A DNA stretch of 63,838 nt, the filler included, from Parasitella parasitica NRRL 2501 (Eukaryota; Fungi; Mucoromycota): assembly GCA_025201805.1 (NCBI GenBank). It is 8 parts of 8 records of this genome, joined end to end, with 100 filler letters (N's around TTAATTAATTAA, not from the genome) between each part and the next. Parts side by side here need not be neighbours in the genome. Positions count along the whole stretch, not along the records: positions 42,107 to 44,658 come from MU619326.1; positions 44,759 to 52,031 come from MU619242.1; 6 more parts are not named here. The stretch is one strand, 5' to 3'. Both the position numbers and the translations under genes were made by a program. This document shows, one piece after another, positions 39,366 through 60,165 of the stretch (positions within the stretch are counted from its first letter, which is position 1; each line of letters opens with the position of its first letter). Under the pieces are notes generated by a model. The model saw only the letters and a list, made by a program, of their open reading frames with translations. It was not told where the DNA came from and did no database searches.

Positions 39366-39881
39366 GTTGTTTTTTTTTGGGAGAGTTATGAAAGAGGGAG
39401 GTGAAGGATAGTCGTTGTGCTGATTTGTTTCGTTTTTATATTCTGACCCTTTGTTCTGTGCAGTTTTTCTCAGGATTGTCGTTTAGTGTTACGTAGATCC
39501 GAAAGTACAAATCTAAAATGTTATCTTTGGTTGGCACCATTATCTCTTGTGTAAAATAGACTCGAACGAACCAAGCGGGTATACAATATATAAGGCGTCT
39601 TCGTACATCTGCATTGAAATTAATTTGGGATATATTGAAATATGCCATTTACTCGTTTTTTTTTTCTTTTGAATGCATACCAAAATATGCTGGCATGTTT
39701 TGGCTCTCACAAAATCATCTTCAAGGGCAGAAAACAGCAAACCCGCATCACCTGTTATAGACGAACCCGTAACAAAATTCCGTTGTTGAACAATGCTATA
39801 CAACTTAACGAACCAGGCTCAGTTTTTCGTTCTCACATGTACATACTTCTTGATCTGTCATAGTCCCATTTTTTAAGTTGT

Positions 39882-41399
39882 GTGATACAAAGATGCTATG
39901 CTATATTTTCAGATAAATACGATGGGATAATGGCTCTTTCCGACAAACAAACATTGACTACAGGAAGGAATCTCATTGGTGGAAACACTGGAGATTCTCG
40001 CCATAACCCAAACAAACAAAAAGACCCAATGCGCTCATACGCACAGGTAATCAAGTCTAATCAAGCAAGGGATTGCTTTGATTTAGGACGCAGGACAGCA
40101 GCTGAAATAGGAGAACTGTCTGAGGGTGGAAAACTGTACATCCACGCCAAGGATAAAAACTCCATAGTAATTGACGGTGCTCAGTTTACTGAGGCAAATG
40201 TCAATTTTAAGGAACTCGGCGTTCTACTTCGGGAGCAATACCCGGAAGCACTTGGACTTCGCATTCGTAATGCAACCAAAGGCACTCACTACTTCGAAAT
40301 CAATTTTCGTACAGCAGCAGCCAGGGAAGAGGCCCTGAAGAAAGATTTTGCCTACAAAGACAAGAAGGTGACTGTCAGTCGAACCTTCCCCAAGGATGCT
40401 ACTATCATTCGAGTTAGTATCAGTGATCTACCCTTTGAGGACGAGGCCATCCTCAAGGAACATATGAGCGATATCTTTAAATACCATGGTGAAATTCTGG
40501 AAATGGGTCTACTGTACACTGTACATGGTCACTGGTTCACCGGTCGAGGCTTTGTTACTTTGAACAGACTGCCGGGAAAGGACTATAAGGATTTGACACC
40601 TCAAATGGAATCTTGGGACGATAATGAAAATCTAACGCTCACGTACACTAACATGAAGCCTAGTTGTAGTCGCTGTCATGTCACCGATCATGTCTTCGGT
40701 AACTGCCCCACAATGATACGTAAGATGAAGAAATGTTACATTTGTGGTCACTCTGATCATTTGCAAGCTGGCTGCCCAGAGGCTTGGTGGAACCTCAACA
40801 AGATGGCTAAAAAGATTGCCAAACGTAATGCAGCCCATAAGTCGCCCAATCAGCCAAGTACTCCTGATGACACCACGATTATCAAGGAATCTGCCAATTC
40901 TGCTGCTCCCTCTCAGATAGCCGCTAAAGACGACTCGCCAACTATCGTCCAGCAGATTGAGGGGTCTACCTCAGAGCATGAAGGACCGTCGAAGGTTGCT
41001 GACGGTACGACTTCTACCCAGGCCGATCTGGTGGTAGATCACCATGATGCCCTGGGAGCCCCCGACCAAATTGACCCGGCTCTCCCGGAGAGTAGCAATG
41101 ATGCCCACCATCAGGAGGAAAGAGAAGATATGTCTGATGCCGACATGGGCTCTGATGTTGATGATAGCGACTTGGACATGTTTGAAGCTGCCAAGGAAGC
41201 TGAAGAGACCAATGTCTCTATTGAACAAGTTCTGGCCAAACAACGTCTGCTGCTCAAGAAGGCCAAAAACAAGAAGCAGAAAACGATCAAACAGATGAAA
41301 GGTAACAAGGCGTTGGGCCATTCCAGTTTTGGGGCTCGCGTAAGTGGTGGGGTTGCTAAGGGGCAGAAGCAATCCACCAACACTTCTTTAACGTTATAA
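39882..41399 (+). CDS. LINE (L1/Tx1-like) ORF1 gag-like protein with two CCHC knuckles
   Basis: CSRCHVTDHVFGNC and CYICGHSDHLQAGC after an RRM-like region. The true start is probably a downstream ATG. Confidence 0.85.
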   Translation: MIQRCYAIFSDKYDGIMALSDKQTLTTGRNLIGGNTGDSRHNPNKQKDPMRSYAQVIKSNQARDCFDLGRRTAAEIGELSEGGKLYIHAKDKNSIVIDGAQFTEANVNFKELGVLLREQYPEALGLRIRNATKGTHYFEINFRTAAAREEALKKDFAYKDKKVTVSRTFPKDATIIRVSISDLPFEDEAILKEHMSDIFKYHGEILEMGLLYTVHGHWFTGRGFVTLNRLPGKDYKDLTPQMESWDDNENLTLTYTNMKPSCSRCHVTDHVFGNCPTMIRKMKKCYICGHSDHLQAGCPEAWWNLNKMAKKIAKRNAAHKSPNQPSTPDDTTIIKESANSAAPSQIAAKDDSPTIVQQIEGSTSEHEGPSKVADGTTSTQADLVVDHHDALGAPDQIDPALPESSNDAHHQEEREDMSDADMGSDVDDSDLDMFEAAKEAEETNVSIEQVLAKQRLLLKKAKNKKQKTIKQMKGNKALGHSSFGARVSGGVAKGQKQSTNTSLTL

Positions 41400-41405
41400 T
41401 TATTA

Positions 41406-42006
41406 TGAGTAATCATAATAATTATAGCCAAACCTAGAATATCAAATTTGGATCACTTAATTGTAGATATCTACTCAAAGTCAACAATCCCCAATTATCT
41501 GATTCTTTTATTCGGTATTTGAGGTTGCAAAAATTTGACATTTTTGCCTGCCAAGAAACCCATATACCCTCACTACACTTTGAAGATCGGACAGCCATGC
41601 TCAACATGAAATTCCAATCTTATCAAAGCTTATGGACATCCCAATGTGGATTATTGAATTTTAACAAGAATATCAACATGGAAAAAATACACTCCTCCAA
41701 TGATGGTAGATTTATATTGGCGAAATTATCGGTACCTGCAGAGCCAAACTTTTTGCCTATATACGTACTCAACGTATATGCACCTGCGGATACTATACAA
41801 AACAAAACCGTTTTTTACAACAATTTGATAGCATATCTCAAATCGCTAGATAATTATGGTGATATACTGGAACGTATGATTCTTGCTGGTGATTTCAATT
41901 TTCAGTATGATTTACGATTGCCTGGCAACACACCTAGCAAGCAACCAACAGCATTTGTGAACTTTACAGATTCATTTCTGCATGACTGCAACAACAATTA
42001 CAGCGA
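41406..42006 (+). pseudogene. LINE ORF2 5' part (APE endonuclease), early stop, cut by gap
   Basis: MSNHNNYSQT*NIKFGSLNCRYL...DIFACQETH...GRFI...LNVYAPA...ILAGDFN. Confidence 0.85.
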
Positions 42007-42106: not shown

Positions 42107-42400
42107 CTCTGTTTGTCCCTCCTCTGCTACAATCTTTTTTCTATGCACGATGCGAGGGCATCCATGTTGTCATTGATCTTCCTTAATAGCCATATGCATC
42201 CCCTCCACCACCCTGACCATCCTAGATGTCATCGTTGGTCTGAGATATCTTTTGCTTCCTTTTTTTCTTTTCGGACATAGTTCCTGATCCCAACCTTTTT
42301 GTTTCCCAATGCTTGCAATAATGATCAAAAGATCGAATGCAATATAGCATTTGTTTTATTAATTCTTTACTTCATATTAATAAACATCCTAAATTTTCGC
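42107..42400 (+). mobile_element. 3' end of an upstream retroelement copy in the tRNA-Ala-type tandem array
   Basis: Pyrimidine-rich segment ending TGATCA..GAT..AATGCA...AATAAA, then the CTGAGCTACATCCCC junction. Same layout as 44280-44352. Confidence 0.5.
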
Positions 42401-42415
42401 CTGAGCTACATCCCC

Positions 42416-44338
42416 ATCTTTCTTTCGTCTAAACAATTTTTTGTCTAAATTTTAAAACTTTGAAAATTTTTTCATCAAGTTGAATAGCCCATTCTCTACT
42501 TTTTTCTTGATTCAAGCTTACCATCATTGCCTCCATCGAGAAAATTTCTTCTTCTACTACGGCTTCTCCTGGTCTGAAACGACCTGTATCCTCACTCTCT
42601 CCTCCGCTTTTTGCTTTCGATCTATCTCAACAGATCAAATCTAAACGTTCTTCTCTCTCTCCTAGAGAATCCCTATTTGCGTCCATGGTCAATACTTTCG
42701 ACTCACCCCCGGATTTGTTTGACTTTGGACCTACCCAACCGCCTTCTGCCTCGTCTGAGGGCGATTTGAACATTGCTTCCTTTGTTATCGAGGTTCGCAA
42801 TCGTTTGAGTCGTCTAGAGGCTGCTCACGCTGAGATTTCTCGGCTCCGAGCAGCTCTAGCAGAATCAGAGTCTGATAGAAAGGCTCTTCAAGCCCAACTG
42901 TCTCGTCTGTCTGTTTCTTCTGTTTCTCGTTCTGCTGCTGCTCCTCCAGCCCCACTAAAAGCTGCCTCTTTTGCTTCGGTTACTGCTGCTGCTGCTGCTA
43001 CTGCTACTCCTACTTCTTCTGCTTCCGCTTCCGCTGTTTCTGCTGTCTCTGTTTCTTCTGTTTCTGTCCCCTCTGCTGCCTCTGGTAACAAAAGAAAGAA
43101 AAAACCTGCTGCTCCTCCTCCCTCCATCAAAAAGGCTGCTGCCACAGTCACTCGTTTGTTTGGAAAGCAATCTGATATCCCCTCAGGATATCAGTTTGTA
43201 TATTATGCTATCTCTCGTCGCCGGCCTCTGCAAGAGATGCGCCGAATTCTCCAGGGTATCAAACTGAACAATTCCCGCATCTTGGATATTCAGTATCCCA
43301 CGCCACATGTCATCTCCTACCTCGTCCACAATGACTATGCTCTCACTTTCACCAGTGGGATGCATTTGAATGGTCGTGGCTGCTCCCCCCTCTCCGACTT
43401 CGATCCATGCGATCCAAAAAATCTGCTGGATCCAAAGTATGCCTCTCTGTCTCCTTCTCTTCGTGCTGAAAAAGCAGTAGAGGTTGAAAATCTTCGTTGT
43501 CTTCGTGCTCTGTCGTTTGTTCGTCGTTCGGTTCGTCTCTCTGTTGCTCGCTCGTTTCTGTATTACGAACGTATTACACAGAAACGGTACGATGCTATTC
43601 TTGCTGAGGAATTGTCTGCTCGTGCTGCTGCCGCCCCTGCCAAAACTCTGTCTCCCTCCGATGCCCAGGATCGCCTGGCAAAGAAACAGCGTCTCAGTTA
43701 TCTCCATAACTTGCTTTTCTTTGACCCTGCCACTGCCAAAACATTGGCATATACTGCGTCCCCGGTTCTCTCTGCTTCTTCTCCTGCTGCAGACACGGTA
43801 ATGCCAGAAATCTCTGGTGTTTGATCGTGTTTGGTAGGTTAAGTATTGTCTCTTTGTCTCCCTCCTTGTTTCTGCCCGCCCGTCTGCTCTCTTTGTTCTT
43901 TTCTTTTTCTTATCCTACCTGGTCTTTGCTTTCTCGTCTCCTTCTTTCTTTACACTACAGGTGTATAGAATCTGCCTCTCCTTTTTTCTCGTCTTTTTGT
44001 GTTTTCCCTGGTTGCGTCTGTTGGTTTTGTTTGTGCTGCTGTATGCCGGTCGAGGTCTCCTCTATTGCACCGTGCTCATACACCACAGCTTCTCTCTCAG
44101 CCTTCCTTCTTCCCTGCCGCCCGACCCCTCTCTCCTGAAATTACAAGTTTTTCCAGTTTCTTGACTTACGATTGGCCTCGCATTTCCTTTTCAGGTAACA
44201 TTCCGATGTTACCTGACTGGATCTGTCATCTTAAGTTTTAAACTTTTTTATTGTAATAGATTCTCTTAGTATAGCAAATTTATGATCATACCGATTAATG
44301 CAGAAAATACTAATGTAAATAAAAACCAAACCTTTCAA
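42416..44338 (+). mobile_element. ORF1-only non-autonomous non-LTR retroelement (~1.9 kb) bounded by CTGAGCTACATCCC direct repeats
   Basis: Single ORF 42685-43824 (frame open from 42511), homologous to the ORF1 C-terminal domain of the LINE at 47099-49270. No RT. 3' UTR has a hairpin and AATAAAAA. Direct repeats at 42401-42414 and 44339-44352. Confidence 0.8.
42685..43824 (+). CDS. LINE ORF1-like protein (coiled coil plus conserved C-terminal RRM-like domain)
   Basis: GYQFVYY...NSRILDIQYPTPHVISYLVHNDY...DFDPCDPKNLLDPKYASL...LRALSFVRRSVRLSVARS, matching 49744-51309 and 47099-49270. Confidence 0.8.
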   Translation: MVNTFDSPPDLFDFGPTQPPSASSEGDLNIASFVIEVRNRLSRLEAAHAEISRLRAALAESESDRKALQAQLSRLSVSSVSRSAAAPPAPLKAASFASVTAAAAATATPTSSASASAVSAVSVSSVSVPSAASGNKRKKKPAAPPPSIKKAAATVTRLFGKQSDIPSGYQFVYYAISRRRPLQEMRRILQGIKLNNSRILDIQYPTPHVISYLVHNDYALTFTSGMHLNGRGCSPLSDFDPCDPKNLLDPKYASLSPSLRAEKAVEVENLRCLRALSFVRRSVRLSVARSFLYYERITQKRYDAILAEELSARAAAAPAKTLSPSDAQDRLAKKQRLSYLHNLLFFDPATAKTLAYTASPVLSASSPAADTVMPEISGV

Positions 44339-44352
44339 CTGAGCTACATCCC

Positions 44353-44658
44353 CACCTTTCTTTCCCCTAACCAATTTTTTACCTAATTTGGAACCTCCAC
44401 TTTTTGTAAGAAATTGTATAACACTTCATCCATCCATCTTGATAAAAGCTTCATCATTGCATCCTTCGAGAAAATTAACTCATCTACCTCGTTGCCTTCA
44501 GATTCTCATTTTTCTGTTGCGTTTGATCTCGTACAACAAATAAAGTCCAAACGATCCTCAACAACATTTGGAGATCCCAAGCCCGCTCCTCCTGCCCAAA
44601 TGAATCTATCAACACCAGATATGATTGATTTCGGTGTCACTGCCCTCCCGTCTGCCTC
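44353..44658 (+). mobile_element. 5' end of a further, diverged ORF1-only-type element (cut by gap)
   Basis: Starts ACCTTTCTTTCC like 42416 and encodes IIASFEKI...AFDLVQQIKSKRS...PDMIDFG, paralogous to IIASIEKI...AFDLSQQIKSKRS...PDLFDFG. Confidence 0.75.
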
Positions 44659-44758
44659 NNNNNNNNNNNNNNNNNNNNNNNNNNNNNNNNNNNNNNNNNN
44701 NNTTAATTAATTAANNNNNNNNNNNNNNNNNNNNNNNNNNNNNNNNNNNNNNNNNNNN

Positions 44759-47102
44759 TGGCGGATTTGAGAGGATTCCATCTATAGCCCAGAGAAATTG
44801 AATGTTGCTCAGCTATATTAAGAAGTGCCTGTGTATTACGTGCATTTCCTAATATAACAACATCATCTGCAAAGAAAAGTGAGTTCAAAAGGAGTGGAGA
44901 GGGGGTATTACCGCGAGAAATTGGCTGTGGTGGTGGCATACGAATTGTTGAATATATAGCGCTATTGGCTGATGTCGGCTCAGCACGAAGAGCTTGAGCG
45001 AGCGAATTGATATAGATCAAATACAAGTGTGGAGATAGGGTAGAGCCCTGCAGAACACCTGTAATCGGATTGAAAGGAGTGGTGGAGACGTGGCCATTGA
45101 GGAGGACCTCAATTTGCACGTTATTGAACAGTAGTTGAAGTGTGGTCAGGAATGGAATATCAATGTTGACATTCTGCAATGCCTTCCATATAATATTCCT
45201 ATCGGTTGTGTCGTATGCAGATTTGATGTCTAAAAATAATAGAGTAGGAAATTCTTTGTGTTTTTGTTTATACCTGATTATTAGTTCCTGTAGGCATAGA
45301 GCCTGATCCAATGTACTTCGTTGGTGTCGAAAGCCGCCCTGTACTGGGTCTAGTGGTACGGAGCGAGGTAAGAGAACGTTGTAAAGACAGATTTCGTAAA
45401 TCTTGCGAAATGTGCAAATCAGGCTGATAGGGCGATGGTTTTTGGGATCATGCACGGGTCCTTTTTTGTAGATGGGGATAACTTGTGCATGGTTGTAGTC
45501 GGTGGGGATGATGGCAAACTTCCAACAGAGAGAGAAGAAATGGTGTAATACAGGTGAGATAAGATCAGTTATTGGTTTGAGCATCTCTGACTTGATATGA
45601 TCAAATCCAGGAGCTTTGTTGGTGGGTAGGCATTTGATAGCGTACGCCACGTCGTCAGAATCAAACAAGATGGGCAGATCAAAGCCCTCGTCAGACAATG
45701 GGAACTGAGTCGGCACCTGTTCGACCGCTGGATTGATATACTTACCATCGTAAGTGTCTTGCCAAGAGGTAGTGATTGTGTCGACAGCCGTTTGGGGACC
45801 ATCTACATGTTGGAATACGCTGCTAGCTAAACGGCTTTTGCTGCGTTTAATGTGCTTGATCTTGTTGGCTGCCTTACTGAATTCAGAGGTGGATAACTTG
45901 TCACAGAATTGTTTGAAATAAAAGCGCTTAGTTTTATCGATGATGGAGCGAACAATATCTGCTGCTTCTTGAAACTGTTTCCAAAATAAAATTTTGTTGA
46001 ATCGGTTAGCATATTTCCATTTTTTGTACAAACGCTCTCGTCGATGGCAAGCATCTGCTAGTTCTTGTGTATAAAACCATTTCCAGGTTTTTGGGCGCGG
46101 TGAGTGTCGCTGTATTGTTGCATCTAAAGAGCTATGGATTATGTCAATCAGGTTAGTATTTAAACGATCAATATGTTCTTGTTTCTGTTGATGACCCGGC
46201 ATATAGGACAAAATGGTTGGATCCACAAGCTGTAAAAATTCATCCAGACGTGAACGAATATGGTTACGGTATTGACGAATGTGGTCAAGATGGCGATTAG
46301 GGTGCTCTTGCGATGGCTTGAACTTGTTTAGGTTCCATAAGAAACGTGGATGGACATTTGTGATAGGCGGTGGATCGAAATCATGAGGTAATTCAAAATG
46401 AACCATCTTATGATCTGATCCTAAATAGACGTCAGTTGTGATAGACATAGAGATACCCTCCATATCAAACGGATGTGTGCTCATAAAAAAGTCGATAATG
46501 CTGGTTTTGTCAATAGGATTTGCTTCAGTGCCCTTGATGTACGTAGGCACACCAAAAGCATGGTCAACATTGTGCAAAGTAAGGCAATGAGTGTGAAGAA
46601 AATCTAAGAACGGTTGATTTCGACCATTTTGACGCTTATCGCCAATATAGTCGCCAAGGCGCGTATTGAAATCGCCACAAAGTAAGACATGTTCAAATTC
46701 ATAGTTGGCGGCATAATGTTCTAATGAATCACTTAGTAGATCAAAACAGGCTTGATCGTCTAGGGAAGGAGGTAAGTATGTACATAGGATGAGATAATTT
46801 TGGCATTGACAGGGGAGGATGAACTTGGACTCTTGATAGATGGGTAGAGGAAGGACTGTATATTGGAAAGAAGGGTTGATGAGTAGCGAGATACCAAATT
46901 GTCCTCGGCGAGCCCTGTCAACGCCAATGCCAAAATTGTGGATTTGGGTCCATGTCGTAGGTAAAGAGCGTTGTGGTAAAAGCCATGTTTCAGTAATAAA
47001 AAAAAGATTAGTTTGCATAGGTAAATTGTCAAAAATAAAATCCATAGTTTCGCTTGTGATGCCCTGGGCATTCCACAAGGTAATGCCTAAAGATTTACTC
47101 AT
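44759..47102 (-). CDS. LINE ORF2: APE endonuclease plus reverse transcriptase (3' end in gap)
   Basis: WNAQG, ITETWL, LCGDFNTR, IIDFF and SDHKMV (APE). KAPGFD, NHRPISL, QGGFR, FLDIKSAYD, GVLQGSTLSP and FFADDVV (RT). Uninterrupted up to the gap. Confidence 0.95.
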
Positions 47103-49270
47103 AGTGGCATATTGGTGTCACTTGCCGCGGGTGGTGACTGGGGAGCCTCGTGGGGAATAGAAGCAGGATTTGATGGTGTTGCTGTGGTGTTAATATTGGA
47201 TGGAAATACCTGTGCAATTTGTTGTTGTTTTTTGTTCTGAAGGAAAGCATTGAGTTCGGGTGTAGTCAAAATTTCTTTGCGGTGAAAATATTTTGCCACC
47301 GAGTGGCATGTGGGATAACGCATAAAGGAAAGTGAGCGCATCAAGTTATTTTTGAATATGGTTTGTAATTTGATTACCTTTTCGCTATCTGGCAAGGCAG
47401 AATAGCGTTGATCTCGAAGATGGATAGGATCAAAATAATCATAAGAGATTGGATTAACTTTGGCGGCTGTAAATCTGGAGAGAAGCTCTGCTTCATAATT
47501 GGTGTGGATCAGTAGCCCGATCACATTCCAATCAGGACAGTGAGCATCTAGAATACGGACGTTGTCGATGCCTAGAAGTGTCAATTTGGATCGAATGATG
47601 CTTGGCTTCATTCGTTTGTTACTAGGGAAATAAATGTATTTGTATTCAGCAGTAGGTGGTTTTTGTGTTGCGTTGAATATCGTGAAGGCAAGCTCCAAGT
47701 TGGCAGCAGTTGGCTGATGGGATCTAAATTGACCGGGTGCATATTTGATTTTAATGAATCCAGGCTTTCGGGCCTGTTCAGCATAACTGGGAATAGCTGG
47801 GACTAATGGGGGGAAGGAGGGGTTAGTAGTATCAGCGTCCATATTATCTAGGGTGGTTTCCGTATTTTGTGGCGTATTGGTATTAGCTTGTTCCCTGGCT
47901 TGTGTGCTATTGTGGTCAAGATGCATGTCAGTAGTATTCATATTATTGTTGGTATTCATAATTGTATTTTTTTGTCTTTTTTGTTCTTTCATCATGTTTT
48001 TTAACTGTTCAATTTCTTTTTTTTGCATTTCATTTTCTTTTTTCTGTTCGTTTAGTTCTTTTTTAAGCTGTTCATTTTGTTCAATCAAAGTATTAATGTA
48101 GTCAAATTTTTGTTGGTTGTCATTAGCTTGTTCCGTAAGCTTTTTAACACTGTCAAGTAAAAAATTAATCACTTGAAAGTTGTTTGATGCTGTTGGATTA
48201 GTATTGTCGTTTTCAAGCCAAATTGGCAACATGTCATCCTGACTGTCGTGGATAGAGGAGATTGAGGCAGTTGGTTGAGCATCTGTAATCATAATATTTT
48301 CCTCTACAGTGGGAGGGGAGAGGCTGGATTCAGAATGTTGGTGGTTGAGGTGGGACATCATATCCACAATGTTGGAGATATTAAAAATTCGCTTGCAATG
48401 GTTACATTGGAAGCGAGGCCTAGGGGGTGAAGATTTGGTAAATCCAAATTTGACCAAGGTGCCAATGGTTGTGCACTCAATGCAGCTGATTTGCTGTTTC
48501 AGTTTCTGGTACTGCTCAGAAGAAGCAATATCCTCGGCAGAGATCAGGGATGCAGGAGTTCCAGGAAGAGGCGTGAAGTGGGCTGGTGAGGCTGTTGTAA
48601 GATCAGTGTTTTTTGGTTTTTTTGAAATGATTCCAAGGGCCTGATTCATATGAGCCATAGATTGTTCGCGATGACAAACAATACATTGGAACTCCAATGG
48701 TGGTGAATTTCTGTTCATGTCGTCGTCCTCGTCCGAATCAGAGTCGTGTCTCAGGGATGTAATGCTAATGCAACCAATGTTAGTGCAGTGTTCACATGAC
48801 AATTCGCTTTTTGATTTCCCAAATTTGGATACTAGTTCATTCTGTAAGCCAGAGAGCGCACCCGAAAGGCGACTCAGAATGGATGGGGTAACTGGTGTTT
48901 CCGTAAGCTTTCGTTTGTTACTGGTAGAAATTGACTGTAACATGGAGTTGGATGTGTTAATTGAGATAGGTAACTTTCGCATACGCTGTTTGGGAGGCAT
49001 CTGATGGTGGAGTATTTGTGCTGCTTCAGGAGGCGGAGATGATGAATCCGACGCATGAACTATTGCTTTTTTTATTGTTTGTTTTTCTTTGTTTTCTGTA
49101 TTTTTTTCTGATTCTTTTTTATTATTGTTTTCTTTTTTTTCAATGTTTTTTTCTTCTTTTTTGTCATTTGTTTTTTCATTTTTTTGTATTGTTGCAATTT
49201 GCTGGATTTCATCAGACGAGCTCGCACCCGGCCGATTAGTACCTGGTGGAATAATAGGAACACCACGCAT
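47099..49270 (-). CDS. LINE ORF1 (two C4 Zn-ribbon-like motifs, coiled coil, RRM-like C-terminal domain)
   Basis: CEHC...CIVC and CIEC...CNHC, then YKYIYF...NVRILDAHCPDWNVIGLLIHTNY...YDYFDPIHLRD. The stop overlaps the ORF2 start as ATGA. Confidence 0.88.
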   Translation of the reverse strand: MRGVPIIPPGTNRPGASSSDEIQQIATIQKNEKTNDKKEEKNIEKKENNNKKESEKNTENKEKQTIKKAIVHASDSSSPPPEAAQILHHQMPPKQRMRKLPISINTSNSMLQSISTSNKRKLTETPVTPSILSRLSGALSGLQNELVSKFGKSKSELSCEHCTNIGCISITSLRHDSDSDEDDDMNRNSPPLEFQCIVCHREQSMAHMNQALGIISKKPKNTDLTTASPAHFTPLPGTPASLISAEDIASSEQYQKLKQQISCIECTTIGTLVKFGFTKSSPPRPRFQCNHCKRIFNISNIVDMMSHLNHQHSESSLSPPTVEENIMITDAQPTASISSIHDSQDDMLPIWLENDNTNPTASNNFQVINFLLDSVKKLTEQANDNQQKFDYINTLIEQNEQLKKELNEQKKENEMQKKEIEQLKNMMKEQKRQKNTIMNTNNNMNTTDMHLDHNSTQAREQANTNTPQNTETTLDNMDADTTNPSFPPLVPAIPSYAEQARKPGFIKIKYAPGQFRSHQPTAANLELAFTIFNATQKPPTAEYKYIYFPSNKRMKPSIIRSKLTLLGIDNVRILDAHCPDWNVIGLLIHTNYEAELLSRFTAAKVNPISYDYFDPIHLRDQRYSALPDSEKVIKLQTIFKNNLMRSLSFMRYPTCHSVAKYFHRKEILTTPELNAFLQNKKQQQIAQVFPSNINTTATPSNPASIPHEAPQSPPAASDTNMPL

Positions 49271-49406
49271 GTGAATGTTCTTGATAGGAGACGATGTTAG
49301 GAGGTTTGATGATCCCGTAGTAAGGAGTTGGAGATATCACGTGTGGTGGATCAGAAAAGTATAAATATGTTGATGTTTTCAACGCGCGAGAAAACTACCT
49401 ATACTT

Positions 49407-49421
49407 CTCTTCGGTAGTATA
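49407..49421 (+). repeat. 15-bp duplication of the tRNA-Asp 5' end (putative target-site duplication)
   Basis: CTCTTCGGTAGTATA is identical to 51362-51376 (tRNA positions -1 to +14). Confidence 0.9.
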
Positions 49422-51361
49422 AACTAAACTTTTTATTATAGAATGACTTCAAATAGACTGCGTCCCATTCGGGCAAGGTGTCTCATCGGGGCAGGTTGGC
49501 GATTGTTATATATGGATCGAAAAACTTGACATGTCAAGAAAAAAAAGCGGGGAAATCGAATTTACAAAATGTGGGGAAAAGGAGACTACACTAAGATGGG
49601 AGTAAATTATTATAAGCTGCATAAAAAAATGAAAAATTATAAAAAATAAAATATTATGGGCGTCAAATATAAACCAAAAGTAGAAGTGAAAAGAGTTGTC
49701 AGATGGAAAGGGAGCGGCGAGAGAGAGAGAAGAAAAAAATATATTATACCTCCATGGCATTCAAGGCAGCAGCAGGAGCATTAGCATTGGTACCAGTGGA
49801 TGGTTCAGAGGGCGGAGGAGAAGAAGCAAGAGCGAGGGCGGAGACAGGATCGAGATATTTCAAGTTGAAATAATATTCAACTCGAATTCTCTTTTTCTCT
49901 TTTCTCTCGGCAGCAGAGACAGTGATATTAGTGGCAGGTTTCTGTGCAGCACGAGCTGCCAGTGTATCAGCCAAAATGGCATCAAACTGAGCTTGAGTAA
50001 TGAAGTCTTGCAACAACATAGATCGCGCAACAGAAACACGGACCGAGAGACGAACAAAGGTGATGGCACGGAGCACACGTATATTTTGCAAATCCATCAA
50101 TTTTTGCAAACGAGTGGCAGGGTTAGCGGCAGAGAGGGCAGGGTCATGAAGATTGGCATCTTCAAGCGGATCAAAGTCCAGCAAAGGATCAGTATTCAAT
50201 TTTTTGTGCATTGTGGAGGTAAACTCCAAGACGAAATCAGCATGCACCAAGAAACAGACAACACGGTGAGTGGGGAAATGAATGTCAATAACTCGCGAGT
50301 TACTGACACCAATTAGAGGGAGGATCTTTTCACGGTACCAAGATAATAGAGGATGTTTCTGGGCTTTATAGTAAATAAAGCGATAGCCATCACTCGAGGA
50401 AGGCTCAGATTTTGGACTGAATTTTCTAGAAAAAGCAGCCAGAACGGCAGGAGAAGGAGGAGCAGGTTTTTTTGCCTTTCGTTTTCTTTTGACAACAGTG
50501 AAATTGTTATTGGATTGAGTGTTGGCAACAGCAGACGCCGCAACAGCAGCAAAAGTAGGAGTTGTAGTAGTGGTAGCAGCAGAGGAAGGACCTTTGGAGG
50601 TAGAGGTGGCAGGATTTGGAGCAGCAGCTTTATTAGCAGCGGCTTTAGAGGCTGGCCTCGAGGTAGAAGAAAGTACAGGTAAAGATACTTGCGCTTTCAG
50701 CAAATTTTGAGCATCTGTCAATGCAGTTTTTACTACATTGAGTTCAGCTCGTAATTTGGCATTTTCAATGGCTAAGCTTTCAACACTTGCCAGACGAGAT
50801 TCTTGATACGCAAGTTTTTGTGTTAGATCACGAATTTGTGATTGGAAGCGGAGTGCCCACGAAGGGGTTTCGTTATCCAGATCGACAGAAAAAGGAGTAG
50901 CAGGAGAGAAATTGGGGATTGTGGTGGTACCTGAATTCGTGAATTCAGTATCTATTTTATTAGATACCTTGGTCATTTGGGGTAAAGAAGCACGACTGGG
51001 GTTGGTTTTAGTACGAGAGTGTTTTTTGAGAACTTTTTGTGAATCAACACCAAAAAGTGGAGGAGACAAAGAGGAAAAAGGTCGTTTAGATTTGTCTGAA
51101 GAAACTTCAGCAAATGTTTTGTTGGGTTGAGAAGAAGATGCTTGAGAAGTCGATGATTTTGAAGAGTGATTAAAACTTTTTGAGTCCTTAGTAGAGGGAG
51201 ATGCCGTTGTTACTGTTGGTACAGTACGAGATCTAAGTTGCCGTGGCAAAGGAATTTTAGAGTGGTTTGCTTTCTTGGTAGACAGTTTCAATGATTGTTG
51301 CTTTTTCAAAAATATTGCGGGTGTTGAACCTATATGTTATGATGAGAAAGCGAAAGAAAGG
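49422..51361 (-). mobile_element. ORF1-only non-autonomous non-LTR retroelement inserted at the tRNA-Asp 5' end
   Basis: 1940 bp between the two 15-bp repeats, one ORF (49744-51309), 5' end CCTTTCTTTCG, 3' end AATAAAAAGTTTAGTT, no RT. Confidence 0.85.
49744..51309 (-). CDS. LINE ORF1-like protein
   Basis: KRPFSSLSPPLF, coiled coil, GYRFIYY...NSRVIDIHFPTHRVVCFLVHADF...DFDPLEDANLHDP...LRAITFVRLSVRVSVARS. Confidence 0.8.
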   Translation of the reverse strand: MKKQQSLKLSTKKANHSKIPLPRQLRSRTVPTVTTASPSTKDSKSFNHSSKSSTSQASSSQPNKTFAEVSSDKSKRPFSSLSPPLFGVDSQKVLKKHSRTKTNPSRASLPQMTKVSNKIDTEFTNSGTTTIPNFSPATPFSVDLDNETPSWALRFQSQIRDLTQKLAYQESRLASVESLAIENAKLRAELNVVKTALTDAQNLLKAQVSLPVLSSTSRPASKAAANKAAAPNPATSTSKGPSSAATTTTTPTFAAVAASAVANTQSNNNFTVVKRKRKAKKPAPPSPAVLAAFSRKFSPKSEPSSSDGYRFIYYKAQKHPLLSWYREKILPLIGVSNSRVIDIHFPTHRVVCFLVHADFVLEFTSTMHKKLNTDPLLDFDPLEDANLHDPALSAANPATRLQKLMDLQNIRVLRAITFVRLSVRVSVARSMLLQDFITQAQFDAILADTLAARAAQKPATNITVSAAERKEKKRIRVEYYFNLKYLDPVSALALASSPPPSEPSTGTNANAPAAALNAMEV

Positions 51362-51362
51362 C

Positions 51363-51434
51363 TCTTCGGTAGTATAGTGGTGAGTATCCCCGCCTGTCAC
51401 GCGGGAGACCGGGGTTCAATTCCCCGCCGGAGAG
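51363..51434 (+). tRNA. tRNA-Asp (GTC)
   Basis: 72-nt cloverleaf TCTTCGG...CCGGAGA-G, anticodon arm CCCGC-CTGTCAC-GCGGG, B box GGTTCAATTCC, followed by a T-run Pol III terminator. Confidence 0.97.
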
Positions 51435-51550
51435 TTTTTTTTTCATTTTTTTAGGAGGTGTACATAGACGTCGATTGAAGATTGGAAATGTTAAAAAACG
51501 TTATGAAATTACAATTATAATCAAGTGTGGTGTGCTTCATTATAAAATTA

Positions 51551-52031
51551 CAGTAGGTGGATTAATAGTCCGGATGTTTTGCAAAATTCGCTAAAACAAG
51601 ATGTAGATCCTGAACAAATTGTCCAATCATTACGAAATGAACGTCATTCAAGAGAAAAAATAGTCTTTAATATACTATAAAGATTTTATTTTGGTTGGTC
51701 AACGGAGATCGAAATAATTCGGAACTAAAATTCATGTGTGCATCCGGACCATTTTTCAGGGTACTCAAACGAATATGGAAGCTCATCGAATTTCATGCAG
51801 TTTTATATCAAACAGTCACGACTGATTAGTTATCAGTCATAAAATATAAAAACTGTTTTAGTTTATTTTTGGTCTTTTCTTTCTTTCTTTTATATATCAA
51901 ACTCGCATCTCATTGATAATATATAAAATGGTACGCTCTTTGCCTATGGACACTCAAAATAGTATCAAGAATTTATTGCAATCTGGTTATTCTTATTCAC
52001 AAATTATGAAACGCGTTCCTGGAGTCAAAAA
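51551..52031 (+). mobile_element. 5' end of a Tc1-like transposon (cut by gap)
   Basis: TA|CAGTAGGTGG terminus and an internal inverted GTCCGGATG/CATCCGGAC pair. The ORF from 51928, MVRSLPMDTQNSIKNLLQSGYSYSQIMKRVPGVK, resembles a Tc1 N-terminal HTH. Confidence 0.65.
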
Positions 52032-52131: not shown

Positions 52132-55092
52132 ATTTTATGATGGGAATCTAGTCTTGTTCACTTCATGCCCCCCTGCTAAACGCAAAAAAATTTGCGTTGA
52201 CCCAGTATGCGGCAAATTTAGATGACTAGGGAACGAAATGGAATCGGTAGACTTTTATAAATATATTCTTTATTTTACGCATAAATTGGAATGCGCCGTA
52301 ATATGGGTTACTTGCCGTTACATTGGATTTAATTAAGTTAGAGTATTTGATTTTCGTTGGCATGTTCGGTGCGCTCGATAAGAAAATCAAAGGGTAACAT
52401 GAGTAGTAATTTATCGGCAAGCTTAAGGTATTTTGGTTTGTGGTGAGCTTTGGCTCTTATATTTGTTTTATTTATATGTTTGTCAATAGAGATGGTGATT
52501 TTTTTTTTTTTTTTTTCAAAATTTGTTTGCACGTTTGTGGAGACGACGAGTTTGCTTTGATAGATTTTTTCGTTTGATAGAGGGGTTCATATGTTTTGTA
52601 TCTCCGGGTGAAGTGTCATTGTTTTCATTTTGTAATGCTTCTCGTCGTTGTAGTTCTTTCACTTTGTCCCAATAATTGGCAATGGGAATAGGCGAGGAAA
52701 ACAGGTCAGGGGTAAGCCAATCATTCTCTCTTTCTCCGTAACCGCACCATTTTGTCAGATATTCGGTGGTACCATCTGGTAGTACACGATGATCACGTAT
52801 TGCTTCGACTTCATATACTTTTTCTTCAAGAGCTGTTTCATCTAAAGATACTACTTTTAGCTCTGAAGGTGTATATTCACGGTGCAACAATTCATTTGTA
52901 TCGTCTTTAAGTACGTAGGTGCCGGCCTGAGTACGTCTGACGACAATGTATGGTCCTGAATAGAGAGGTGCTAATTTATTCTTTCGACCTTCAGCAAAAC
53001 GTATCATTACAGGCGTTCCTGTTGGAATCTGTTCTATTATGTAATGTTTTTTGTTGAATTTTTCGCGATGTAATTTGGCTAATTCATCTGTTCTTTGTTG
53101 GATAGCGGGAAAGACGATGTCATTCATAATTTCTGTTCTTTTTTGAAGTTCTTCAAGTGTCAACGTCTTTCTGCTATTCCTGTTAATTTGTTTAGGTTTT
53201 AAATTTACTTGTCTAGCAAACATCAGGCTAAAAGGGGTACTTGCAGTACGATCTCGTACTTTCATATTAATGGCTAATTGAATTATAGGCAGACGATTAT
53301 CCCAGTTTCGTGTGTCGTTTCCACACATCTTTCTTAAGGTCGAGGAAACTATTTTCACAGCATTTTCGCTATGACCATTTCCTTGTGCATAGTAAGGGGT
53401 GCTGTGGATCATGCCAATGTTTAGTGATTTGTATATGTATTCAGAGAGATTTGATTTGAACTCGCGTCCATTATCAGATAAGGTAACATTTACTGCTAAT
53501 CCATAATCTCCATAAATTGATACTAATAGATTGGCAATAGTATCACTTTGCTTGTTTGGGGCTGCTCGGGCAATGATGTACTTCGTACAGATGTCTACAA
53601 CAACAAGAATATAACAGTTTCCCCGCTCAGTTACAGGTAAGGGTCCGATCATATCCATGCTGATGAAATCAAATGGTTCATACGATACAACACTTTTCGC
53701 CGGGTTAAACCCTTTTTTTGCAACATTATGCAATTGGCACTCCTTACAGGACATCAAAATTTCCTTGACATCATTATAAATGTTCTTCCAATGAAGGCCA
53801 TGATAGGTGTGGATATGCTTTACGACAGCTGCCATACCAAAATGACCAATTTTATGGGCATCCTGAATTATTTGTTTTCGATCACTTTTGGGCGGGCAAA
53901 CATAGTCAGTTGGGGCCTCCTTGAATTCTTTATCAATGATTTTGACAGCAAGTACGTTTAGATTTGGATCTTTCGAATAAATTTTCCTTTGTTTTATAAT
54001 TTGGTTTCCTTTTACTCTTCGTTGTAAAATCAATTTTTCTAATTTCTTGATTTGTTGAGCATATTCATCCGCAAGCTCCTCATCTTCAGTTATAGAAGGG
54101 TACAATCTTGATAGACGATCAGCAAGAATGTTTTCCATTCCTTTTATATGTGCTACCGAGAAATTATATTCTCCCAAAATTTCCAGATAACCTTGGAGAG
54201 TGCTATTTAATGTGGAGGATGTGAACAAATATGTAAGAGCGATATGATCACACAATACAGTTATATTGTTATGACCCCACAAAAGTGGTTTGTATTTTTG
54301 AAAACCATATACTATGGCTGCAGTTTCTCTTCGATTTGTGGACCAATTTCTTTCGGCACTGTTCAAAGATCTGCTTACGAATGCGACATGTTTGATGCGA
54401 CCATAATCATCTTTTTGAAATAGACATGCTGATATTCCTAAAACGCTAGCATCTGTTTGCATATAATATGGCTGTGATGGATCAGGTGCGTAAAGGATTT
54501 GGCTAGACATGAGTATTTGCTTAATTCGTTGTAGTCTATCCGTATGTAATTGATTCCATTTTCCCTTGATGTTTTTCTCATTTCTGAGTGCGTCAATAGG
54601 GGCGGAAATTTTGGATAGCATCGGACAGTAGCTTCTAAGATGGCTGATAACTCCCATAAGGCTACGTACTTGTTTTGTTGTTTTTGGTATTTCCCAGGAA
54701 TCGATATTTGACAATCTTTTTGTATCAATTTTTGTTATATCTTTACTGATAATGAAACCTAACAAATGTACACTTGTTTTGAAAAAAGAACATTTATCAA
54801 TGTTGATTCTTAAGTTTACACTAGTTAAGCGGTTGATTACTAATTGAAGCATCAACGAACTTGAAGTTGCGTCTATTCCCCAAACAACAATATCGTCCAA
54901 ATAATGACAAATTCCAGCTTGGAAATTATCATCAATGCGACTAATGTCTTTATTTTGTTGAAGATACAACTTCTTTAATTCGTTTTTTAGTTCTTGTTCG
55001 ATACCATCAAACAAAACGCTCATTGTATAAACAAATTGGCTAACAAGGAATTTTAAACCAAAGGGGGCTCTACTCCATTGGTAGCTCTGATT
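52132..55092 (-). mobile_element. Ty3/gypsy chromovirus, pol 3' part (RT-RNase H-integrase-chromodomain), PPT and start of the 3' LTR
   Basis: ORF 52516-55023 and upstream: APFGL, HYLDD, QTDAS, ADRLSR, HHCC (H..GHFG...CKEC), SMDM, SDNGREF, GPY motif, YEVEAIRDHR..YLTKWCGY chromodomain. PPT AGCAGGGGGG followed by TG at 52165. Confidence 0.95.
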
Positions 55093-57820: not shown

Positions 57821-60165
57821 TTTTTTTTTTTTTGTGTATTAAAGTGTACCTTTATTAACTAAATGCAACTAATAGCTATGGAAAAAATGTACTAACACTA
57901 CTTATTTAAGGTCGCTTTACGAGTGGAAATAGCTTTGCCCGTAGTGCCCTTGCTATTGCTTTTGTTACCTTTATTGCTTGTAACAGAGGTGTTGATTTTC
58001 GCCTATTAATTGAAGGTTGAATCTCATCTCAATTCCAATATTGACACCGACATTCAAATGGAATTGTATAAAGACTTTTAGAAACCAGGACCAGAGCAAT
58101 CCGGGCTTCCTTTTCAATCTTTAATAAAGACCCTACGTTCTCCGTGATATAATCGCTTGTAGTCTCTTTATTTAATTGTCTTTGGAAATAATCGTTATTC
58201 ATATAACTCTCAAGAGGTACTTCCATAAAGCTTGGGTTGGGATTCAGCTTGCTTTTTCTTGGCTGTACCTGACGTAAAGCTGCGTCAGTCGACAGTTCTG
58301 CAGGCATGTCCAACTTCATATTCATAGCCACTGTATCTGAAGCATACTTGGAATACGCAGAGCTTCTATCTGCGGATGCTTTCTGATCACCTGCCAAAAC
58401 CACCTTGTCATTATCATCTACATCTTCGTGCATGTTGTCAACCAAAGATTTATCATCATTTTCAGCTTCAATAGCTATAGATTCAGCATTATCCAATTCT
58501 TCTTCATCTTCAAAATCTTCTGACTCCTCATTGTCAACACATTCTTCTTCACTATCCCTGAATTTTTCCTTGTCTACAAAACCGGATAAAGTAGCAGGCG
58601 AATTGACAGAGGCTGCAAAGTTGGCTTGCTGTTTTTGCTTATCAAACTCGGAACAAAACCGGATCATATGGCCTGGCTTATGGCACCCAAAGCACATACG
58701 TTTGGCCAACTCTGGACATTTAGCACGAATATGACCACTATGACGACAGAAATGACAAACAGGAGGAGCACCCTTGAATGTCGCTGCCACAAAGCAATCA
58801 AGTTCGCAGAGATAGAGCATTCTATCTAGAGGATTTGCTGGCCTGTGCTCACCCTCCACTAGCGTACCAATAGAATTGTCAATTAGAGCCGAGAAATTGC
58901 CCTCGAAAAAACCACCACGAGTGTACTGCCTCAGCTGGAGAACTCTATCATAATACGAGAGGGATGCAATCAAGTCATCTAGAAGAAGCGGGTCTGTGAC
59001 AATTCGCACTAAAGTGAACTGCACAAGCTTCATCTTGCTGTAATCTTTGGGCTCCTGAGGGAGTACGGCCTTGTAAACGATCCCATCAACAGTGACACCA
59101 GTCTGTATAGCCTTTTTCGCATTGTCTGCCTCCTCAAGTTTGGCTTCAATAAATAAGGAACCATCATCCTTGGAGTCATAAATGTTGAGAGGACGAAATT
59201 CAACCAAGGGAGAAACCTGAGCCTGGATTGCCTTGTAGGCATCGACGCGATCACCAAATAAACCTTTTCGAAATGTAAACAGAACAGAGCCAGGAGTAAG
59301 CGACTGTTGCAAAATTACCATTGCTTTAGTAGCTAGGATTCCTCCAGTAAAATCCTCATCTTCATAAATTACTGATCCTACTAATTGATAAGACGACGCT
59401 GTAGCCGTGGCTGAACGTCTTTTGTTGTGTTCGTAGTGTCGAATACCAGCACCACGAGCAGCTAGTTTTGCCCAAGTGCTGCCAGCCCAAGTTGCTTCAG
59501 GAATAGTAGGCATTATACGTTGTTAAGCTGTTATCGTAAAACAGTGGCGTAGTGTATGTAGCACGTATCGAGTGTTACTATTGCTATTTGTTCGAAAATT
59601 CAGAATATGTCGAAACGAAGGTTAATCGTTCTGAAATTTAGATATGTTGTAAAGCTGAGATGGATGTATTTAAAAGTAGTTGGTTGCGAGATGGATGTAT
59701 ACTGGTTGTCGAGATATCGTGCTTCAAAGTTGAACTTTTTAAAAAAAGTGATGTATACGCGTATAGTATGATAGTCTGCATGACACAAGGCTATCTTACT
59801 ATCCATGACAGGCGGGAAAACCAGAGAGACAGGACCAAGGTCTTTGTTCACATCCAAATATACACGACGGACTTTTTTAGGTTACGCCACATGACGAGTA
59901 ACGCCCTCGACAATGCCAAGATCAGGCTGCCAAAAGCAAATGCCAGACACCAAGTAGCGAGAATCCAAAGTAGCAGGATCAGCTATCGAAAAAACTGACG
60001 ACACAGTACTGAGTACATAACACAATGGAAAATCAAGAAACCACCTAGCCGACCGACTAGAGGAAGGAACAAGAGACCATTATAGCCCACGTTTCTGTAT
60101 GAGTGATTATCGTGGAGTGTAACTTCTGTAGTGTGTGTAGTTGTGTTGTCGAGAAACCTGCAAAA
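57821..60165 (-). mobile_element. L1/Tx1-type ORF1-only element with its own poly(A) tail
   Basis: ORF 58029-59513 with CHFCRHSGHIRAKC and CFGCHKPGHMIRFC knuckles. AATAAAGGTACACTTTAATACAC(A)13 follows within ~200 bp, with no ORF2. The 5' boundary is approximate. Confidence 0.72.

Follow-up and report, generated by a model that had tools for sequence, protein, structure and literature searches.

In Mucorales we found non-LTR elements, namely an APE-RT LINE and elements carrying ORF1 only, which lie antisense to tRNA genes and between duplicated tRNA 5' ends. Target-primed reverse transcription from a nick in the A box is their likely mode of insertion, with the tRNA gene rebuilt and possibly hit again, a reading to which we give a probability of roughly 80%. 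The duplications, the orientation, the intact tRNA genes (Asp and Lys), the stacks and a 3' junction fixed after A14 are directly observed.

Results

Scaffolds of the window

The window, the whole stretch of DNA analysed (63,838 nucleotides, Parasitella parasitica NRRL 2501), contains seven identical artificial linkers of 100 nt, each an N-run with a fixed 12-mer. The linker at 44659-44758 makes 42107-44658 and 44759-52031 separate, unlinked scaffolds, and a single locus across them is ruled out. The initial annotation had described one system across 42401..51434; both element sets are real, but their physical linkage is not. Both scaffolds are short and their ends fall inside elements.

Element W at a tRNA-Asp gene

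On the second scaffold, two exact copies of a 15-bp direct repeat begin at 49407 and 51362. An intact tRNA-Asp(GTC) gene was located at 51363..51434 on the plus strand (ARAGORN; Rfam RF00005, 60.2 bits, E 5e-11, full length), with a T9 run 3' of it as terminator, so the 15-mer at 51362 is nt -1..+14 of this tRNA and the copy at 49407..49421 (plus strand) is its duplicate, the target-site duplication that bounds element W on its 3' side. Element W (49422..51361, minus strand, 1940 bp) contains a single long ORF (51336-49744 stop to stop, 530 aa; 410 aa from the first Met) and a 3' UTR of 322 nt lacking poly(A), and no ORF2 remnant was found within its 1940 bp. The repeat search, ARAGORN and Rfam thus bore out the proposed 1.94-kb ORF1-only element between exact 15-bp copies of nt -1..+14 beside an intact tRNA-Asp. 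From nt -2, the new 5' flank of the gene is element W. Since 45 of 1000 simulated 7.3-kb scaffolds held some exact 15-bp repeat, a bare repeat is not rare; the chance expectation of that particular tRNA 15-mer is 1.7e-5 occurrences.

Contigs of public runs were compared, and the figures are those among the matches listed (134 loose ends and 391 pieces lie further). In run X4 a copy of W, 18 nt shorter at its 5' end, is joined at -1 of a tRNA-Asp differing by one D-loop base, and a contig of run X1 matches this copy in its coordinates; both runs may be of the window's own strain. Runs X10 and X12 yielded nothing closer than relatives that diverge at many positions (about 13-15% in the long pieces), and these were left out of the junction support. 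Behind the Asp repeat, two other sequences were joined among the matches listed. No single contig among them bridged LINE, repeat and element with 31 letters per side, so assembly may have collapsed several copies into the LINE-repeat-W order of this scaffold. An empty-site allele was not encountered in this contig comparison, the tRNA body being outside its coverage.

The neighbouring APE-RT LINE

Directly beyond 49407, a LINE lies on the minus strand (RVT_1 4e-20, Exo_endo_phos_2 2e-11, Pfam). Its 5' UTR (49271..49406, 136 nt) abuts the tRNA-Asp duplicate. ORF1 (47099..49270, 723 aa) has, in this order, CxxC zinc motifs, a likely coiled coil and a conserved RRM-like plus helical domain, and its stop is overlapped by the ATG of ORF2 (44760..47102), which encodes APE and then RT (Pfam) with intact catalytic motifs and stays open for 781 aa before being cut by the scaffold end; full-length ORF2 relatives have 1100-1200 aa. 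The best PDB match of ORF2 was human L1 ORF2p (E 5e-25), and R2 matched at 1e-14. RNase H gave no match up to E 1 in all three full-length ORF2 relatives (P0002, P0005 and P0145), the ORF2 in the window being truncated. LINE ORF1 was 23-26% identical to ORF1-only proteins (E 1e-17 and 5e-12), and Pfam and the ORF1 comparison together upheld the earlier description of an APE-RT LINE with a homologous ORF1 directly beyond the first repeat copy, in the same orientation as W. The last 30-50 nt of the LINE 5' UTR are common to several otherwise different contigs; at least three other contigs per run, among the matches listed, match this part and diverge further in. The LINE is cut off at 44759 and its 3' end lies beyond the scaffold, so its own duplication and its helper role are presumed. 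Both W and the LINE were seen at Asp only.

Stacked elements between Ala-type 5' ends

On the first scaffold, an exact 16-bp repeat starts at 42401 and 44339, and 1 of 1000 simulations of a 2.55-kb scaffold gave a repeat of this length. The copies (42401..42416 and 44339..44354, both minus strand) correspond by tRNA comparison to nt -1..+15 of a tRNA 5' end that is likely Ala; the +15 base may belong to the element, making the duplication -1..+14. Among the matches listed, 56 of 80 viral loci had the Ala-type 15-mer as a tRNA 5' end, and in 30 of these 56 the tRNA was Ala. ARAGORN found no tRNA-Ala gene in the window. The earlier claim of plus-strand elements separated by a tRNA-Ala 5' end therefore stands for the tRNA 5'-end repeat, while the Ala label is likely only.

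Three elements are stacked here on the plus strand. Element X is represented by its 3' end (42107..42400, cut by the scaffold start; 77% identity over 87 nt to its counterpart in locus L003), which has no poly(A) tail and an ATAAA motif 16-17 nt ahead of the junction. The ORF1-only element Y (42417..44338, about 1.92 kb) has an ORF at 42511-43824 stop to stop, of 379 aa from the first Met at 42685, and is closed by the second 16-mer. The 5' end of a third related element, Z (44355..44658, cut by the scaffold end), is 70% identical to the 5' end of Y over 140 nt and 68% identical to locus L002 over 317 nt.

Independent loci and junction geometry

Loci L002-L004 came from a metagenome scan with a protein query, which is blind to tRNAs; two broad ORF1 alignments were too divergent for larger collections, so this single scan favoured the ORF1-only clade. 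L002, on a low-coverage contig (cov 2.2), is an ORF1-only relative of Y between copies of nt -9..+14 of an intact tRNA-Lys, a 23-bp duplication. Y and L002 share 74% DNA identity over 1806 nt and are sisters in the tree (100/97), yet they are flanked by Ala-type and Lys ends, respectively, which argues that the repeats derive from the target and not from the element. The caveat that the 15-mer might be an internal terminus regardless of locus was thus answered: on either side, L002 carries the 5' end of another tRNA together with 9 nt from upstream of it, which rules out a fixed element terminus. The L002/Lys case likewise supports the tRNA-derived duplication, antisense insertion, gene regeneration and head-to-tail stacking first proposed from the window.

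Two cases are complete on both sides and have intact tRNAs, W/Asp and L002/Lys, which differ in isotype. In the protein-query scan, a small sample, a tRNA 5' end stood at the junction in 2 of 3 loci, and in 2 of 2 within the ORF1-only clade. The Ala-type junction is nearly identical in the window and L003; L003 and 42401 may descend from one ancestral junction and not from two separate events. No tRNA 5' end was present in the 249 nt before ORF1 of L004, which is autonomous, distant and of another subclade. The ORF2 scan of viral contigs gave one distant match, L001 (24%), without tRNA, and that of prokaryote genomes gave L005, distant and without a tRNA 5' end, and L006, an internal fragment with no ends and also without tRNA. 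ORF1 relatives were found in 0/61 and 0/17 candidate stretches of viral contigs, and the ORF1 scan of prokaryote genomes gave 0/9.

Each of the five visible 3' junctions immediately follows tRNA A14 (+14; +15 in the Ala-type), and six of seven 5' junctions lie at -1, the other at -9. Of the two cuts proposed before, at about +14/+15 and near -1, the first is best placed at +14|+15 and the second varies, -1 or -9. The 3' ends lack poly(A) in 5/5 and carry an ATAAA motif 10-17 nt before each junction. W, Y and L002 share a target-site duplication, a fixed 3' end, a variable 5' end and the lack of LTR or TIR. Y-type elements were seen at Ala-type and Lys ends only, both of which share the A-box heptamer.

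ORF1 phylogeny and domain

In the ORF1 tree, LINE and ORF1-only elements formed separate clades, each with 100/100 (17 and 14 of 50 rows). ORF1-only elements as HAL1-like deletion products of the neighbouring LINE were rejected on these clades and the 23% identity. Given the 23-26% identity and the separate clades, this LINE may not be the helper. The view of an autonomous LINE with ORF1-only partners was thus confirmed for both element types and their homologous ORF1, but their pairing was not, in view of the 100/100 clades and the unseen LINE 3' end.

ORF1 is conserved in elements without ORF2 and is under purifying selection (Y vs L002, dN/dS 0.135 over 228 C-terminal codons). The ORF1 domain model of W (pLDDT 93) predicts an RRM/ferredoxin-like core with many RRM matches, the best with Z of only 8.0 (rmsd 2.2, 71 aligned), and Foldseek returned nothing at E<=0.001 with this model; the LINE ORF1 would adopt the same fold, judging from the homologous domain of W. 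The 3' UTRs of W, X and Y gave no mutual BLASTN match at E<=1e-3, and outside their last bases the alignment had little in common; a shared RNA recognition element was therefore not found among them. ORF1 relatives occur in Mucor lusitanicus.

Discussion

In the proposed mechanism, an ORF2 protein would place a nick between A14 and nt 15 on the sense strand of the tRNA, most likely through recognition of the A-box sequence T8-A9-G10...A14, and the nicked 3' end would prime cDNA on element RNA at its precise non-poly(A) end. Cleavage of the other strand would follow near -1 or, in some cases, further upstream, and nt -1..+14 would be duplicated by fill-in. The full tRNA would then adjoin the element 5' end and the next insertion would fall between them, so that the tRNA-proximal element would be the youngest. 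ORF1-only elements would borrow ORF2p in trans, like TRE5-A.2, and would retain ORF1 because their own RNA requires it.

The same insertion event could instead be steered by tethering, which we consider unlikely: ORF1p would bind TFIIIB/TFIIIC as in TRE5-A, and a non-specific APE would cut at a fixed distance that happens to lie in the A box. The head-to-head orientation and the ORF1-only partner are as in TRE5-A, whose ORF1p is described to bind TBP (PMC5391098; PMC5911963), and the conservation of ORF1 without ORF2 and the three isotypes hit also fit. However, in 5/5 the 3' junction falls on one fixed base, whereas TRE5-A spreads over several bases, with 80% of insertions reported within 47+/-3 bp (PMC5391098), and this precision favours sequence reading. 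The restriction of Y-type elements to Ala-type and Lys ends, with the same A-box heptamer, and of W and the LINE to Asp also hints at a sequence preference.

Assistance by RNA is likewise doubtful. The end of a read-through transcript, complementary to tRNA nt +14..+1, would pair with the nicked strand and fix the priming point, and copies would tend to return to the last isotype. The lack of poly(A) at all five 3' ends agrees with this, and with ATAAA 10-17 nt before each junction, RNA cleavage would fall at or inside the duplicate. A read-through role is reportedly known for R1Bm. Annealing of target-like RNA has been proposed for SART1Bm (PMC7265360). Nevertheless, Y and L002 differ by a switch between Ala-type and Lys ends, whose match is limited to nt 8-14, and a nick would still be needed first. 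Also improbable in our estimate is a self-healing RNA-steered system, in which the tRNA-derived duplicate would be a short transcribed guide that pairs with the A-box nick, an old ORF1-only clade (Mucor, Rhizopus) would use it to stack on Asp, Ala and Lys, and the conserved element 5' end would be a replacement leader keeping the tRNA expressed; if so, a changed 3' flank would retarget insertion.

A further rival takes the tRNA-like 15/16-mers as termini belonging to the elements themselves, or as remnants of an old tRNA capture, with tRNA adjacency produced by recombination or assembly collapse through such short matches; we hold it very improbable. In its favour, the Ala-type junction is nearly alike in the window and L003, neither an intact tRNA-Ala nor an empty site was seen and the short scaffolds end inside elements, but close relatives have different tRNA ends and L002 also duplicates 9 nt of upstream flank, which largely refutes it, the 5'-shortened W copy joins the same -1 base, and the junction types recur in separately assembled contigs.

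Insertion from an A-box nick with the gene rebuilt, the reading we prefer, would be TRE5-A-like in geometry, shifted so that the priming nick falls inside the A box. TRE5-A.1/TRE5-A.2 of Dictyostelium discoideum are described as a two-ORF APE-RT element with its 5' end facing the tRNA 5' end, an active ORF1-only partner and tandems at one tRNA gene (PMC5391098; PMC5911963); the likeness is in the described organisation, and the host kingdom is different. TRE5-A inserts about 47 bp upstream, outside the tRNA and with several bases' spread, whereas here the 5' junction is at -1 (6/7) or -9. TRE5-A.2 is reported as a derivative of TRE5-A.1 (PMC5391098; PMC5911963), whereas the ORF1-only partners here are an old clade of their own. 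The nearest precedent is Dictyostelium purpureum NLTR-A (Dp_NLTR-A), which is described with an RNase H domain (PMC5006619), unlike the three full-length ORF2 relatives here. The 5' edge here, 1 bp (6/7) or 9 bp upstream, is near but outside the range given for Dp_NLTR-A (PMC5006619). The text and supplement text of PMC5006619 hold no mention of a TSD or duplication; with an ordinary duplication, Dp_NLTR-A might share the cut-inside geometry.

The planarian LIN15_SM and LIN25_SM and NeSL-1_TV are also non-LTR elements at fixed bases inside tRNA genes, four Arg isoacceptors being hit by LIN15_SM (PMC4640811), but they are NeSL-related with a restriction-like endonuclease, in contrast to the N-terminal APE here. 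In the S6 Fig alignment, LIN15 and NeSL-1_TV split the tRNA gene, the 3' flank of LIN25 starts from about +5 with its 5' side outside the alignment, and none of the three shows a whole gene restored (PMC4640811). Dada DNA transposons reportedly also hit this part of the A box (tRNA nt 8-13) across many isotypes, but with a DDE transposase, a 6-7-bp duplication and disruption of the gene (PMC3706591; PMC8869645). The half-L1 HAL1 is non-autonomous and encodes ORF1p alone, but is a mammalian L1 derivative, described there without tRNA targeting (PMC5753468). In the same host group, GremLINE1 of Mucor lusitanicus is described as pericentromeric, with A/T-rich duplications and A-rich priming (PMC9963178), whereas the duplications here are tRNA 5' ends and poly(A) is lacking in 5/5. 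Because ORF1 relatives occur in this species, the present family may be among its 79 'other LINE' copies (PMC9963178); the main text of that paper reports no tRNA association of GremLINE1 or 'other LINE', its sole tRNA mention being in the methods.

In the literature searched, we found no precise landing at tRNA genes that cuts inside yet preserves the gene. Among known tRNA-seeking retroelements, TRE5, TRE3, Ty1 and Ty3 insert outside the gene, and LIN15, NeSL-1_TV and Dada split it. In the present case, single-base precision appears to come from a conserved sequence within the gene, which is restored; this would unite specificity and harmlessness, and it suggests a re-look at Dp_NLTR-A for the same geometry. 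If confirmed, the Asp, Ala and Lys sites would form a natural series in which to study target reading and target switching by an APE endonuclease, and the reason why ORF1-only elements keep ORF1 could be put to the test. The system would be a candidate safe-harbour inserter as well, non-destructive and in a genetically tractable fungus, and transposons would have supplied the 5' flanks of some Mucorales tRNA genes.

Results

ORF1-only elements between copies of tRNA 5' ends

The analyzed DNA is a chain of scaffolds with seven identical 100-nt linkers between them, and the single span 42401..51434 of the initial annotation is divided over two unlinked scaffolds (A, 42107-44658; B, 44759-52031). 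On scaffold B, an exact 15-bp direct repeat (starts 49407 and 51362) brackets the ORF1-only element W, which is 1940 bp long with one long ORF on the minus strand. The right copy coincides with the 5' end (nt -1..+14) of a complete tRNA-Asp(GTC) gene with a T-run terminator (51363-51434; +1, first tRNA base), as had been annotated. A LINE on the minus strand adjoins the left copy, its ORF1 start codon being within 136 nt. LINE ORF1 is 723 aa, and ORF2 is open for 781 aa up to the scaffold end with APE and RT motifs intact. The previous description of an APE-RT LINE with a homologous ORF1 was thus confirmed, the identity being 23–26% to the ORF1 of either W or Y, the latter an ORF1-only element of scaffold A. 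The bare exact 15-bp repeat arose in 45 of 1000 simulations and is not rare; the expected count of that specific tRNA 15-mer was 1.7e-5.

On scaffold A, an exact 16-bp repeat (starts 42401 and 44339) separates the plus-strand elements X, Y and Z, and arose in 1/1000 simulations. Of the 80 viral loci listed for its reverse complement, 56 were tRNA 5' ends, and 30 of those 56 belonged to Ala; no matching tRNA-Ala gene was present in the window. The canonical tRNA-Ala 5' end proposed before therefore holds as a tRNA 5' end and, as Ala, is likely.

Independent loci and junctions

One metagenome scan using the ORF1 alignment as query, blind to tRNAs, gave three loci (L002, L003 and L004). At L002, an ORF1-only element is present in full, with 74% identity to Y across 1806 nt; it lies head-to-head with an intact tRNA-Lys(CTT) gene, whose nt -9..+14 flank it on both sides as a 23-bp duplication. 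Since this sister of the Ala-flanked Y has Lys flanks and upstream sequence, the repeats derive from the target and are not a fixed element terminus, in agreement with the earlier proposal. The 3' copy of L002 mismatches the tRNA-Lys gene at +15, so the 3' junction lies after A14, as at Asp. L003 showed the same X-repeat-Y layout with the Ala-type 16-mer and may be orthologous to that of scaffold A. In L004, which is autonomous and belongs to a different subclade, no tRNA end was found in the 249 nt preceding ORF1, and no tRNA was present at the distant L005 or the fragment L006; the evidence for targeting thus extends to only part of the family. The first 39 nt of L002 (192-230) lack the pyrimidine-rich 5' terminus common to W, Y, Z and L003 and are loosely similar to the tRNA-Lys upstream flank, perhaps by template switch or flank capture. 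L005 (1-7585), a distant relative, is an APE-RT LINE present in full, and short telomere-like repeats occur close to each of its ends; its contig is deposited as part of a bacterial MAG, where it is likely eukaryotic contamination.

All five 3' junctions (W, Y, X, L002 and the upstream element of L003) were located after +14, those of the Ala type at +14 or +15 with numbering that assumes the 15-mer begins at +1. ATAAA was found 10–17 nt before the junction in 5/5 3' ends, and poly(A) in 0/5. The 5' junctions were at -1 in six of seven cases (W, a shortened W copy from public contigs, LINE, Y, Z and L003) and at -9 in L002. The annotated nick at about +14/+15 thus agreed with every 3' junction, and the cut near -1 with all 5' junctions except that of L002.

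ORF1 family

Named homologs of ORF2 and of both ORF1 types were found in Parasitella, Mucor and Rhizopus, making a Mucoraceae fungus the very likely host. The ORF1 profile matched 829 clusters at 50% identity, showing the family to be large. The ORF1s of W and Y are 43% identical over 244 aa, and Pfam gave no meaningful domain in either. The AlphaFold2 model of the conserved domain was confident (pLDDT 93); structural alignment matched its core to numerous RRM domains with intermediate scores (best Z 8.0, rmsd 2.2, 71 aligned), and Foldseek returned nothing significant with this model. A tree was built from 50 rows, comprising 7 translated loci and 43 proteins picked from about 190. In it, W, Y, L002 and L003 were in one clade (17 rows, 100/100) that extends to Rhizopus delemar (P0036), and LINE ORF1 was in another (14 rows, 100/100). 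Judging from these separate clades and the extension to Rhizopus delemar, the ORF1-only elements W, Y and L002 are an old lineage, and their origin as deletions of the neighbouring LINE was ruled out. By tblastn with 10 ORF2 relatives as queries, no trace of ORF2 was detected in W, L002, L003 or scaffold A. A dN/dS of 0.135 (Y vs L002, 228 C-terminal codons) indicated purifying selection on ORF1.

The reading frames of Y (42511-42684) and W (50977-51336) continue well upstream of the first AUG and there encode a conserved SLSPPL motif, hinting at non-AUG initiation. The Parasitella protein P0145 (1443 aa), annotated as an ORF1-ORF2 fusion of the W/Y/LINE family, may be a gene-model artefact.

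Public contigs across scaffold B

The stretch 44759-51361, which ends before the tRNA-Asp body, was compared with the best rows of 4 of 15 listed runs. In X1 and X4, possibly from the window's own strain, a single contig of 5199 nt carried the LINE, and one or two contigs covered W, with few differences. These contigs chain by overlap through the 15-bp repeat; because none has 31 letters on each side of it, the order LINE-repeat-W is consistent with the data and not proven. One short contig stops exactly at 49421, as a branch point would. In X4, a W copy ends 18 nt early and continues at -1 into a tRNA-Asp whose D loop has a single difference, and an X1 contig has the same shape; we read this as a second insertion, a later deletion being possible. 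Among the best rows listed, other sequences carried the LINE's last 30–50 nt (loose ends, where contigs diverge, at 49355 and 49376), two such contigs continuing into the repeat, and others were attached behind the repeat (49432 and 49437). No empty tRNA-Asp allele was seen among these rows of the four runs.

Runs X10 and X12, under the same species label, had many diverged relatives in place of these exact copies, and coverage was deep near the repeat and the LINE 5' end; this may reflect fast turnover or different species under one label.

Other elements

A TA-flanked, terminal-inverted-repeat-like end (51549-51573; one window copy) lies ~115 bp downstream of tRNA-Asp, and at a TA in the LINE 5' terminus another contig carries an inverted, nearly identical copy (X1, loose end 49400). 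We take this repeat end near tRNA genes to be possibly a Tc1/mariner-type MITE. Two unrelated LINE-like ORF1s with CCHC knuckles (39864-42006 and 58029-59522) are possibly GremLINE1-like; the former is followed by an APE start interrupted by the scaffold end. A Ty3/gypsy pol fragment (RT, RNase H, integrase and chromodomain) is located at 52516-55092.

Discussion

Under the established scheme of target-primed reverse transcription, the position of the first nick is read from a fixed 3' junction. With the element antisense, this nick would fall between +14 and +15 of the tRNA sense strand; cutting once more, at -1 or farther upstream, would duplicate the tRNA 5' end and thereby restore the whole gene behind the element. 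Repeated insertion would build stacks with the youngest element beside the tRNA; W would therefore postdate the LINE. We assign a probability of about 0.8 to this target-primed insertion through an in-tRNA nick, with gene restoration and stacking. The scaffold-B LINE, with its 3' end missing, is a putative helper of the ORF1-only elements, and the rebuilt tRNA gene is putatively expressed.

For site choice, an APE reading the A box is favoured at roughly even odds, because the junction is fixed to one base, compared with the 47 ± 3 bp spread of tethered TRE5-A insertions (PMC5391098, consulted in part), and because Y-type targets have nt 8-14 in common. Selection of the site by TFIIIB tethering, or by pairing of read-through RNA, is improbable for each taken singly; the two could act together.

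In the portions of the cited papers available, the elements resemble TRE5-A with TRE5-A.2 in orientation, ORF1-only partner and tandems (PMC5391098), and differ from TRE5 by the TRE5 position test of the W/Y/LINE junctions. The nearest precedent there is Dp_NLTR-A, which inserts 2–6 bp upstream and has RNase H; the text and supplement text, figures aside, report no duplication (PMC5006619). LIN15_SM, LIN25_SM and NeSL-1_TV insert within tRNAs and leave fragments (PMC4640811), Dada targets nt 8-13 and disrupts the tRNA gene (PMC3706591, PMC8869645), and GremLINE1 of Mucor differs in target (PMC9963178). The literature compared, likewise in part, also included PMC4494074, PMC5911963, PMC5753468, PMC12019607, PMC7265360 and bioRxiv 10.64898/2026.10.23.761428.

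Neither a Mucorales tRNA-targeting LINE nor the restore-the-gene insertion geometry was found described in the searched literature, which holds few subscription papers. Kojima and Fujiwara 2004, reportedly including the tRNA-array family Dewa, could contain a closer precedent, as could the R1Bm read-through work and Repbase. The interest of the finding is tempered by the precedents named, by the few loci sampled and by the absence of the LINE 3' end. The observation itself is real and is, within the searched literature, a previously undescribed variation among tRNA-targeting non-LTR retrotransposons.
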